From: Escherichia phage JP4
DNA length: 64,000 bases
Direction: 5' to 3' (one strand)
Sequence record: PQ330092
Shown: positions 58,052 to 59,124 of the stretch, piece by piece
Numbering within the stretch: the stretch's first letter is position 1
Layout: each line of letters opens with the position of its first letter
Notes under the pieces: model-generated
What the model saw: the letters and a program-made list of their open reading frames with translations, nothing else
Told to the model about the DNA's origin: nothing
Databases searched by the model: none
Translations under genes and position numbers: made by a program

Positions 58052-58588
58052 ATGTTAGATAAAAAAATGAACTCTGGAACCCAATATAATCATCTTAAGT
58101 TGGATACATTCGAATCAGCTATCAGTACAGCACAAGATATAATTGATATTATCAAGTTCATTAAAGAAGATAAGTTCAAATGTTTGAAAATACTAAATCG
58201 TTCAATGTACCGTGATAAAAATATTCATGTATCAGTACGTAGACCGAAAGATCAAGAAAGTGGGAGAGATTTCTATAACAACAGTGAGCAGTTCGAATGT
58301 GAATATGATCCAGAATTCAGAGGCGGTTTCATGTGTTACAGTATAAAGGATACCTCACACATTGAGATACGTTCATCGAAAGGTGGCATACGTACATTAG
58401 AGTTCATTGATATAGTTTTAAATCAGGAATACTACTTTCAACTATCATTATTGTTTCCTGCATACGATTTAGGAGTTCTATTCATGTATAAGTACTTTCA
58501 TGAGCACTGGAATGAAGACTTCTATCTGGACTTAGAAGATTACCAATTAGTTTGGAAAGAAATGGTAGAACTTCGCAACCCATCTTGA
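58052..58588 (+). CDS. Array paralog, long class (178 aa; start refined), EYYFQLSLLFP
   Basis: SD GAGG then ATG. Confidence 0.6.
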   Translation: MLDKKMNSGTQYNHLKLDTFESAISTAQDIIDIIKFIKEDKFKCLKILNRSMYRDKNIHVSVRRPKDQESGRDFYNNSEQFECEYDPEFRGGFMCYSIKDTSHIEIRSSKGGIRTLEFIDIVLNQEYYFQLSLLFPAYDLGVLFMYKYFHEHWNEDFYLDLEDYQLVWKEMVELRNPS

Positions 58589-58614
58589 CACCCTCCGATT
58601 CTTTGTGATATAAT
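58585..58614 (+). promoter_or_regulatory. Internal array promoter TTGACA-18-TATAAT with TGTGATATAA/TTATATCACA inverted repeat spanning the -10
   Basis: Read directly. Confidence 0.55.
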
Positions 58615-58647
58615 CTCTTTATATTAATTGTAAAGGGTTATATCACA

Positions 58648-59124
58648 ATGTCCAAAGACCTATCATTTAGCAATGCACAAAAAATAGCAAAAGACATTAT
58701 CAGGGTTTATAAATTCCTTGCGAATGTTACTGAAGATTTTTCCGTGGGGGAACATAAAGTTATTAAACGAAATGGATACCTTTCATTTATGGATGGGTTA
58801 CTCTATAGTTCAGATGAATCAACTTGTAGCATTAGAGTTCTTGATGAAGTACCAAGTGGTGATTTTATTTCATACCATTTTCCAAGTTCAGATAATTTCA
58901 AATACTACAATCATCTTCTTATAAATGAAGCATTTAATACGATTGTAATTAACACTGAAGAAGAGTTCTTCCAGTACAGTACTGTGTATCCAGAGAGGAT
59001 TGTTTTCAGTTCAGTGATTTTAACAGCCCTTAAAAATGAACTAAATTCCGATAGTGATCATTTCTACTTGGACCTGAACAATGTCGATTGTATTATTGAG
59101 TACATGGAGAAAAATGGTTTATGA
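58648..59124 (+). CDS. Array paralog, long class (158 aa), EEEFFQYSTVYPE
   Basis: Promoter 58585-58614 with 10-bp inverted repeat over the -10 box. Confidence 0.65.
   Translation: MSKDLSFSNAQKIAKDIIRVYKFLANVTEDFSVGEHKVIKRNGYLSFMDGLLYSSDESTCSIRVLDEVPSGDFISYHFPSSDNFKYYNHLLINEAFNTIVINTEEEFFQYSTVYPERIVFSSVILTALKNELNSDSDHFYLDLNNVDCIIEYMEKNGL

Follow-up and report, generated by a model that had tools for sequence, protein, structure and literature searches.

The DNA studied here is a 64,000 nt stretch of Escherichia phage JP4 (sequence record PQ330092), referred to throughout as the window, which is 95-98% identical to PBECO4, slurp01 and 121Q, Asteriusvirus-type jumbo coliphages with genomes of ~350 kb. 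Between 43.9 and 63.7 kb it carries an array of 41 closely packed open reading frames (ORFs) on the plus strand, of which 25 can be assigned to two divergent families of paralogues, one with 17 members and the other with 8. No Pfam domain was found in the array ORFs, and their PHROG matches are all to families of unknown function. One of the few true intergenic gaps in this array (58588-58648) is the site at which a promoter, an inverted repeat and a translation start overlap. The features of this locus are as follows.

58052-58588, plus strand: upstream array gene, 178 aa, phrog_28549 (ORF list)
58585-58590, plus strand: -35 hexamer TTGACA (promoter scan)
58603-58648, plus strand: full RNA hairpin, 46 nt (RNAfold)
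58604-58613, plus strand: left arm of the inverted repeat, TGTGATATAA (DNA search)
58606-58614, plus strand: extended -10 element TGaTATAAT (TG at 58606-58607, TATAAT at 58609-58614), separated from the -35 hexamer by an 18 nt spacer
58621, plus strand: predicted transcription start, an A 7 nt past the -10, inferred from standard sigma-70 geometry
58632-58637, plus strand: Shine-Dalgarno (SD)-like AAAGGG, wholly in the 3' arms of the hairpin; a ribosome-binding site is annotated in UE-S1
58638-58647, plus strand: right arm of the inverted repeat, TTATATCACA, the reverse complement of the left (DNA search)
58648-59124, plus strand: downstream array gene, 158 aa, phrog_12674, unknown function (ORF list)

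The genes flanking the promoter are paralogues of each other (phrog_28549 / 12674 / 9317). The upstream gene is annotated at the same position in PBECO4, 121Q, phAPEC6 and UE-S1, and terminates with a TGA (58586-58588) that is contained in the -35 hexamer.

A consensus promoter overlapped by an inverted repeat

The promoter, TTGACA-18-TATAAT, is the sole 12/12 match returned by the promoter scan across 50-64 kb, and displays the features expected of a sigma-70 extended -10 promoter, namely consensus boxes, a spacer in the 16-18 nt range and a TG one base 5' of the -10. An initial annotation of this DNA had described a perfect 10 bp inverted repeat at the promoter. The repeat is real, and grows to 11 bp with the addition of T58603/A58648, but both arms truly lie one base further left than had been recorded. 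The remainder of the described geometry was accurate: the arms are 24 nt apart, the left arm lies over the -10, including its TATAAT and the TG of the extended element, and the end of the right arm directly precedes the ATG (58648-58650).

The 10-mer repeat is by itself weak evidence of function, because the window holds 12 perfect inverted repeats of at least 10 bp with loops of 3-40 nt, against 3.6 +/- 1.9 expected from dinucleotide shuffles, and because TGTGATATAA, when allowing up to one mismatch, is not enriched within the window (13 observed, 15.5 expected). A promoter-like match on the minus strand at 58654-58627 (TGGACA-16-TACAAT, 10/12) was taken as chance, there being 88 such matches against 87.5 expected.

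The hairpin and accessibility of the ribosome-binding site

The 24 nt 'loop' separating the two arms is itself self-complementary, such that the region can fold into a much longer structure than the repeat alone. The outer stem is composed of 13 bp (58603-58615 paired with 58636-58648), followed by a bulged U58616 and a 7 bp inner stem (58617-58623 paired with 58629-58635) closed by a 5 nt loop (58624-58628). Its computed stability is -21.2 kcal/mol (RNAfold; z = -8.5), which none of 200 dinucleotide shuffles matched, and which is ~3.9 standard deviations under the mean of 56 nt sliding windows on both strands (mean -6.8, standard deviation 3.7). The hairpin ranks among the ~15 most stable local structures in the window, and second in the array half. 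The plus strand RNA folds far better than that of the minus strand (-21.2 versus -12.9 kcal/mol). Both the structure and the conservation described below are well beyond chance.

The 5' arm of this hairpin comprises the extended -10 and the first transcribed bases, while the 3' arms include the SD sequence and end on the A of the ATG of the downstream gene, which is the final paired base. The predicted start at ~A58621 falls within the 5' half of the hairpin, and therefore only RNA reading through from upstream should be able to form it. By contrast with the stable read-through structure, RNA beginning at 58621 is unstructured (-5.1 kcal/mol, z = +0.7). According to partition-function calculations, opening the region from the SD to three bases past the AUG costs 18.0 kcal/mol on read-through RNA, but 4.9 kcal/mol on promoter-started RNA; the equivalent values for phage A4, a divergent relative, are 18.6 and 3.4 kcal/mol. 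Among the 41 array gene starts in their read-through context, that at 58648 is a clear outlier, with 18.0 kcal/mol compared to a median of 6.5 (standard deviation 2.6) and a next-highest value of 12.5 kcal/mol. The hairpin is thus predicted to have no role on the promoter's own transcripts, and would instead serve to separate two transcript classes.

As one of two alternatives, the initial annotation had suggested an RNA hairpin sequestering the start region. This proposal is supported by a helix of 20 bp, rather than 10, that buries both the SD and the start codon, is conserved and has undergone compensatory changes in A4, with the refinement that the 5' arm lies 5' of the predicted start (~58621) and the structure should hence be confined to read-through RNA. 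No Rfam 15 family was matched, the hits being limited to miRNA precursors at chance level (17-21 bits, against a gathering score of 88). The candidate role of intrinsic terminator was rejected: the stem is AU-rich and followed by AAUGUCCAAAG, with no U-run, and the element is absent from the terminator scan. The top-ranking hairpin of the array half (53385-53440, -21.6 kcal/mol), which ends in UUUUUU, lies inside the ORF at 53327-53815 and could be an intragenic terminator or attenuator.

Conservation and covariation

The locus was compared across 17 relatives, representing six distinct haplotypes. The hairpin is kept in all 17, with stabilities of -16 to -21.5 kcal/mol, and the extended -10 is likewise invariant in 17 of 17. 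The TTGAC of the -35 hexamer is unchanged in nine aligned relatives and also in A4, with ph0011 having TTGACC. In the group formed by EC.P1, TH47 and CMSTMSU, the downstream protein is only ~58% identical to that encoded in the window, and the promoter and hairpin of EC.P1 and CMSTMSU differ from those of the window at just two spacer positions.

Several substitutions affect the stem. T58643 is replaced by A in phAPEC6, slurp01 and UE-S1, creating a mismatch; this change always co-occurs with U58616 to C, which abolishes the bulge and, in phAPEC6 and slurp01, results in a 9 bp inner stem. TH47 and fEgEco12 have a T in place of A58647; in ph0011 a G replaces A58645, generating a U-G wobble that an RNA helix tolerates.

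The most extensive changes are found in A4, whose flanking proteins share 34% and 31% identity with their counterparts in the window. The layout is nevertheless the same: a stop codon lies within TTGACA, the extended -10 is TGATATAAT, and a 19 bp hairpin (-21.5 kcal/mol, z = -8.0) encloses the SD (AAAAGGA) and the whole AUG, the ATG being displaced yet still within the stem. Three adjacent pairs at the base of the stem differ from those of the window in both partners:

58603/58648: UA to GC
58604/58647: UA to CG
58605/58646: GC to AU

Across the six haplotypes, 92.5% of alignment cells are paired, versus 38-55% when the partner is slid by 1-3 columns. A pattern scan of IMG/VR returned 77 loci; protein-anchored searches of IMG/VR and metagenomes recovered only copies of the 121Q and phAPEC6 types, and blastn with the A4 region matched A4 alone.

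Proposed masking of read-through mRNA

These in silico observations (the promoter match, the hairpin with its conservation and covariation, and the difference in accessibility) are best explained, with a confidence slightly above even, by translational masking of read-through mRNA of the type known from T4 gene e, soc and I-TevI. Promoter and translational mask would be combined in one element. Transcripts entering from upstream promoters would contain both arms and form the hairpin, preventing ribosomes from loading on 58648-59124; the terminating ribosome of the upstream gene would halt ~15 nt short of the stem, so that translational coupling would be broken as well. Transcripts initiated at the internal promoter (~A58621) would lack the 5' arm, leaving the ribosome-binding site open. 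Synthesis of the 58648-59124 product would consequently be tied to the activity of the internal promoter and not to read-through transcription. Read-through from upstream is plausible, because no terminator-like element was found in the sequence between the upstream gene and the promoter, and because the -35 shares bases with the upstream stop codon. The position of the start, the occurrence of read-through RNA and the consequence for translation are inferences. The most likely function, at slightly better than even odds, is translational insulation of 58648-59124 from upstream transcription, which would make it part of a separate expression unit.

In the T4 genes e, soc, 49, I-TevI, I-TevII, I-TevIII and segB, and in Aeh1 mobE, a promoter is located in the 5' strand of a helix sequestering the ribosome-binding site and renders translation dependent on the proximal promoter (PMC3014915, PMC2988022); for e, soc, 49, I-TevI, segB and mobE this geometry has been established by experiment (PMC3014915, PMC2988022). 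The JP4 locus resembles this class in having the -10 in the 5' strand of the helix and the SD and AUG in the 3' strand, in that the transcript from the proximal promoter would be without the 5' strand, given the predicted start, and in the position of the gene within a long polycistronic region of a single strand, in a phage of the wider T4-related lineage. Computationally, it has the hallmarks of the class: the helix sequesters the SD and start codon, the promoter is in the 5' strand, and the structure is conserved despite sequence change. The regulatory device would therefore be one already known from T4, with only the JP4 example being new. It differs in that the JP4 promoter matches the sigma-70 consensus, with an extended -10, and is presumably early, whereas those of T4 are gp55-dependent late promoters (TATAAATA) or MotA-dependent middle promoters. 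In addition, the JP4 gene is an array paralogue of unknown function, while the T4 genes are involved in lysis or encode capsid proteins or nucleases, and the JP4 case is known from sequence alone. The jumbo phages considered here are distantly related to T4 and follow a similar transcription programme (PMC5259590). For related jumbo phages, among them CBB, RpoD-like promoters in regions of short hypothetical genes have been reported, together with a gp55-like late sigma factor and late motifs resembling those of T4 (PMC5259590).

A second promoter with the same inverted repeat

The initial annotation had proposed a search for the same palindrome elsewhere in the genome. There is no enrichment in the window, and one further perfect pair was found when the whole PBECO4 genome (KC295538.1) was scanned for TGTGATATAA.

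PBECO4 KC295538.1 239846-239915, minus strand: locus 2, perfect TGTGATATAA/TTATATCACA pair, arms 14 nt apart

The gene strand of PBECO4 has 11 copies of TGTGATATAA, almost all of them in the form TGTGATATAAT at promoter-like intergenic positions, and the other strand has just three, two of which are partner arms. TGTGATATAAT itself is present at ~10 promoter-like sites. As TGTGATATAA recurs as TGTGATATAAT with a bias towards the gene strand, the left arm is simply the consensus extended -10 of a recurrent promoter class. The minus strand TGTGATATAAT sites (333127, 274230, 216037, 211031, 195539, 95916, 23859 and 11517) often have a non-canonical upstream box, for example ATGGGAC, TTGGACA or TGAAACG, and may constitute a phage-specific promoter class; that at 95916 has its own 10 bp inverted repeat, ATGTGAACAT / ATGTTCACAT, bracketing the promoter.

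The pair at locus 2 overlaps the -10 of a TTGAAA-18-TATAAT promoter 5' of a 114 aa gene, which is situated beside a DNA polymerase III alpha-like gene. This core-gene promoter is conserved across the genera Asteriusvirus, Eneladusvirus and Mimasvirus, and the downstream complement tracks the local -10 variant. The arms are 14 nt apart in PBECO4, EC.P1 and A4 and separated by a 5 nt loop in EJP2; in the Yersinia and Cronobacter phages the -10 differs and is accompanied by short hairpins (5-6 bp) particular to them. The right arm lies 22 nt 5' of the ATG, leaving the SD uncovered.

Of the 107 TGNTATAAT sites, two are followed by a complement of 10 nt or longer, versus ~0.1 expected. Such hairpins were rejected as a general property of the promoter class, because the remaining TGNTATAAT sites match the control; this is not a genome-wide design.

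Weighing the alternatives

A number of observations weigh against masking. Right-arm changes in three lineages are uncompensated, and in A4 the minus strand is slightly more stable than the plus strand (-24.2 versus -21.5 kcal/mol); comparing G-U pairs to identify the strand on which the structure acts favours the plus strand in the window lineage, but not in A4. The covariation support is real but thin, deriving as it does from one divergent lineage (A4) and six haplotypes; shuffle controls are suggestive rather than overwhelming, the covariation being at least as high as observed in 8-16 out of 500 column shuffles. Locus 2, with its exposed SD, indicates that masking of the ribosome-binding site is not a universal role of hairpins formed between a -10 and its complement. 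The promoter being sigma-70-like, and presumably early, makes the biological reason for masking obscure, and a literature search found no report on Asteriusvirus promoters, transcripts or hairpins.

The helix might alternatively have a part in RNA processing or stability, either as a substrate on the read-through RNA for host RNase III or some other endonuclease, or as a 3'-end barrier shielding the upstream message from exonucleases, thereby splitting the array into segments that decay or are translated independently; cleavage could also unmask the ribosome-binding site. The stem of 20 bp (13 + 7, with one bulge) spans about two helical turns, approximately the minimal length of an RNase III substrate, and lies exactly between two cistrons. 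The early region of T7 provides a parallel, in that its RNase III sites are intercistronic hairpins of ~20 bp within a polycistronic early mRNA; these, however, have a characteristic internal loop and do not overlap promoters, and the downstream start codon is generally not buried, whereas the JP4 hairpin overlaps a promoter and buries the start codon. At locus 2, where the hairpin is found just past a stop codon with the SD uncovered, a generic role for RNA structure fits better than masking. Yet the shifted pairing in A4 still encloses the SD and the entire AUG, as expected of masking but needless for a processing site, and no other intercistronic junction of the 41-gene array has such a helix. 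Processing is regarded as a doubtful explanation, though an RNase III or stability role could coexist with masking. It is rather unlikely that the structure has no function of its own, having arisen by chance or local duplication and been retained since the intergenic region is conserved for its promoter and ribosome site. A few perfect 10 bp inverted repeats are to be expected in a window of this size, the majority of relatives have diverged too little to inform the question, and uncompensated changes accumulate in the right arm at about the same rate as in the loop. Set against this are the z scores relative to dinucleotide shuffles (-8.5 in the window, -8.0 in A4), the retention of a 19 bp helix with three double compensations in the otherwise extensively changed A4 leader, and the masking of this start, the strongest of all 41 in the array.

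The other alternative raised by the initial annotation, an operator for a dimeric repressor, is not supported. A dimeric phage or host protein binding TGTGATATAA half-sites could occlude the -10 and provide a timed shut-off of the promoter, much as I-TevI represses its own late promoter through a palindromic operator overlapping the -10 (PMC2988022), a similarity that extends to the placement of the JP4 inverted repeat over the -10 element. The identical perfect 10-mer pair at the second promoter (PBECO4, 239.9 kb), the ~20-fold excess of such long complements over the control (2 versus ~0.1 among the 107 TGNTATAAT sites) and the centre-to-centre distances at the two loci (34 and 24 bp), which are about one helical turn apart, would all suit this explanation. 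However, the left half-site is the recurrent -10 consensus, so that identical arms at two loci follow from complementarity alone. The spacing is long and variable (24 nt here, 14 nt at locus 2 and a 5 nt loop in EJP2), and pairing also takes place within the intervening 24 nt, for which an operator has no need. The right arm drifts, having changed in three lineages, with ph0011 retaining only a G-U type match, and the A4 arms co-vary outside any fixed half-site. What is found is hence not two half-sites of conserved sequence at a fixed spacing. Moreover, the window shows no enrichment of the 10-mer, and no repressor candidate was found among the neighbouring proteins, which have no Pfam hit, PHROG matches of unknown function only and no match to a DNA-binding fold. 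The combination of variable spacing, paired inter-arm sequence, G-U pairs and right-arm drift argues for a nucleic acid hairpin over a rigid dimeric operator, which is considered improbable. Least credible, to the point of being very improbable, is that negative supercoiling drives extrusion of the 46 bp near-palindrome as a DNA cruciform, thereby shutting off the -10 and rendering the promoter responsive to template topology. The palindrome is long and AT-rich with its centre just 3' of the -10, and in A4 both strands fold equally well; but in the window lineage two G-U pairs are mismatches on the other strand, the minus strand reaching just -12.9 kcal/mol, and such switches are rare.

Extent and implications of the putative expression unit

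Translational masking at 58648 would have consequences for the genes that follow, for which the relevant features are listed below.

59121-62428, plus strand: seven further array genes, tightly packed or overlapping (ORF list; paralogy)
62427-62447, plus strand: first terminator-like hairpin and T-run 3' of the promoter (terminator scan)
62461-62489, plus strand: next promoter, TTTACA-17-TATAAT, past the terminator (promoter scan)

The dependence on the internal promoter would probably extend to these seven translationally coupled genes up to the terminator, and it is plausible that the stretch from the promoter at 58585 through eight closely spaced genes to the terminator at 62427-62447 constitutes a distinct, separately regulated expression unit. 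No homologues of the gene at 58648-59124 were found outside Asteriusvirus, and an AlphaFold2 model of its product, built from an alignment of 17 in-window paralogues (pLDDT 70.8), had no PDB match with E < 6.

This reading predicts that the 41-gene array is divided into two or more translational units instead of forming a single operon, and that production of the 58648-59124 protein is dependent on one specific promoter. If confirmed, a control device long familiar from T4 would be extended to promoters of the sigma-70 type in a distantly related lineage of jumbo phages. For annotation, it implies that a strong promoter within an array can be paired with a structure silencing transcripts from upstream, which bears on the inference of expression from RNA-seq coverage. 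The element also represents a compact, testable handle on the timing of expression of hundreds of small Asteriusvirus genes.

A broader proposal, which is speculative and judged unlikely to hold, is that in Asteriusvirus and related jumbo phages the extended -10 TGTGATATAAT doubles as the strand of an RNA helix at selected promoters, thereby marking mRNA by its promoter of origin. This would involve at least two promoters, one in an early paralogue array and one serving the core gene beside the DNA polymerase III alpha-like gene. Were it true, read-through and promoter-proximal transcripts would differ in structure, and so in translation, processing or decay, amounting to a general layer of post-transcriptional control in largely unstudied 350 kb phages.

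Further observations elsewhere in the window

Within 46700-46769, TTGACA (46740-46745), a 17 nt spacer and TATCAT (46763-46768) come after a terminator-like hairpin that has a T6 run. The TATCAT overlaps an annotated ATG at 46767, and therefore either the gene start or the promoter assignment is doubtful.

The stretches 1-14905 and 20115-35019, offset by 20,114 bp, differ only in their final few bases. They look like adjacent copies of a direct terminal repeat of ~20 kb, which the record apparently carries twice in tandem; the direct terminal repeat of Sharanji is 20,668 bp (PMC11895373). Within ~1-36000, many small plus strand genes are preceded by GTATAATGTTTTACAT (a -10), a G-rich hairpin of the GGGGAGAA..TTCTCCCC type in the 5' untranslated region, an SD and the ATG, examples being the gene starts at 1681, 4083, 6622, 7245, 11680, 12227, 12558, 14074, 17092 and 20175. 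These units resemble a family of cassettes, each joining an early promoter to a leader whose 5' stem-loop is conserved.

Palindromes based on CAGTACTG, such as CAGTACTATTGACA..TAGTACTG, surround a -35-like TTGACA at 12781-12836, 18013-18068 and many other sites in 1-36 kb; such recurrence points to a motif particular to the terminal repeat region, either regulatory or bound by protein. The terminator-like hairpins AAAGGGATTGACTCCGGTCAGTCCCTTT, at 7895-7922, 11164-11191 and 13424-13451 and in the repeat copies, have TTGACT as part of the stem, with TATTAT beyond it at the distance expected for a promoter; they seem to be modules in which a terminator and a promoter overlap. Finally, at 13145-13208 (copied at 33259-33322), AUAAUGUUUUAC, consisting of the -10 and following bases of a TTGACA-16-TATAAT promoter (13122-13150), pairs over 12 bp with GUAAAAUAUUAU, which spans the SD to the AUG of the gene starting at 13206, and this may be a second case of the promoter-in-hairpin design.

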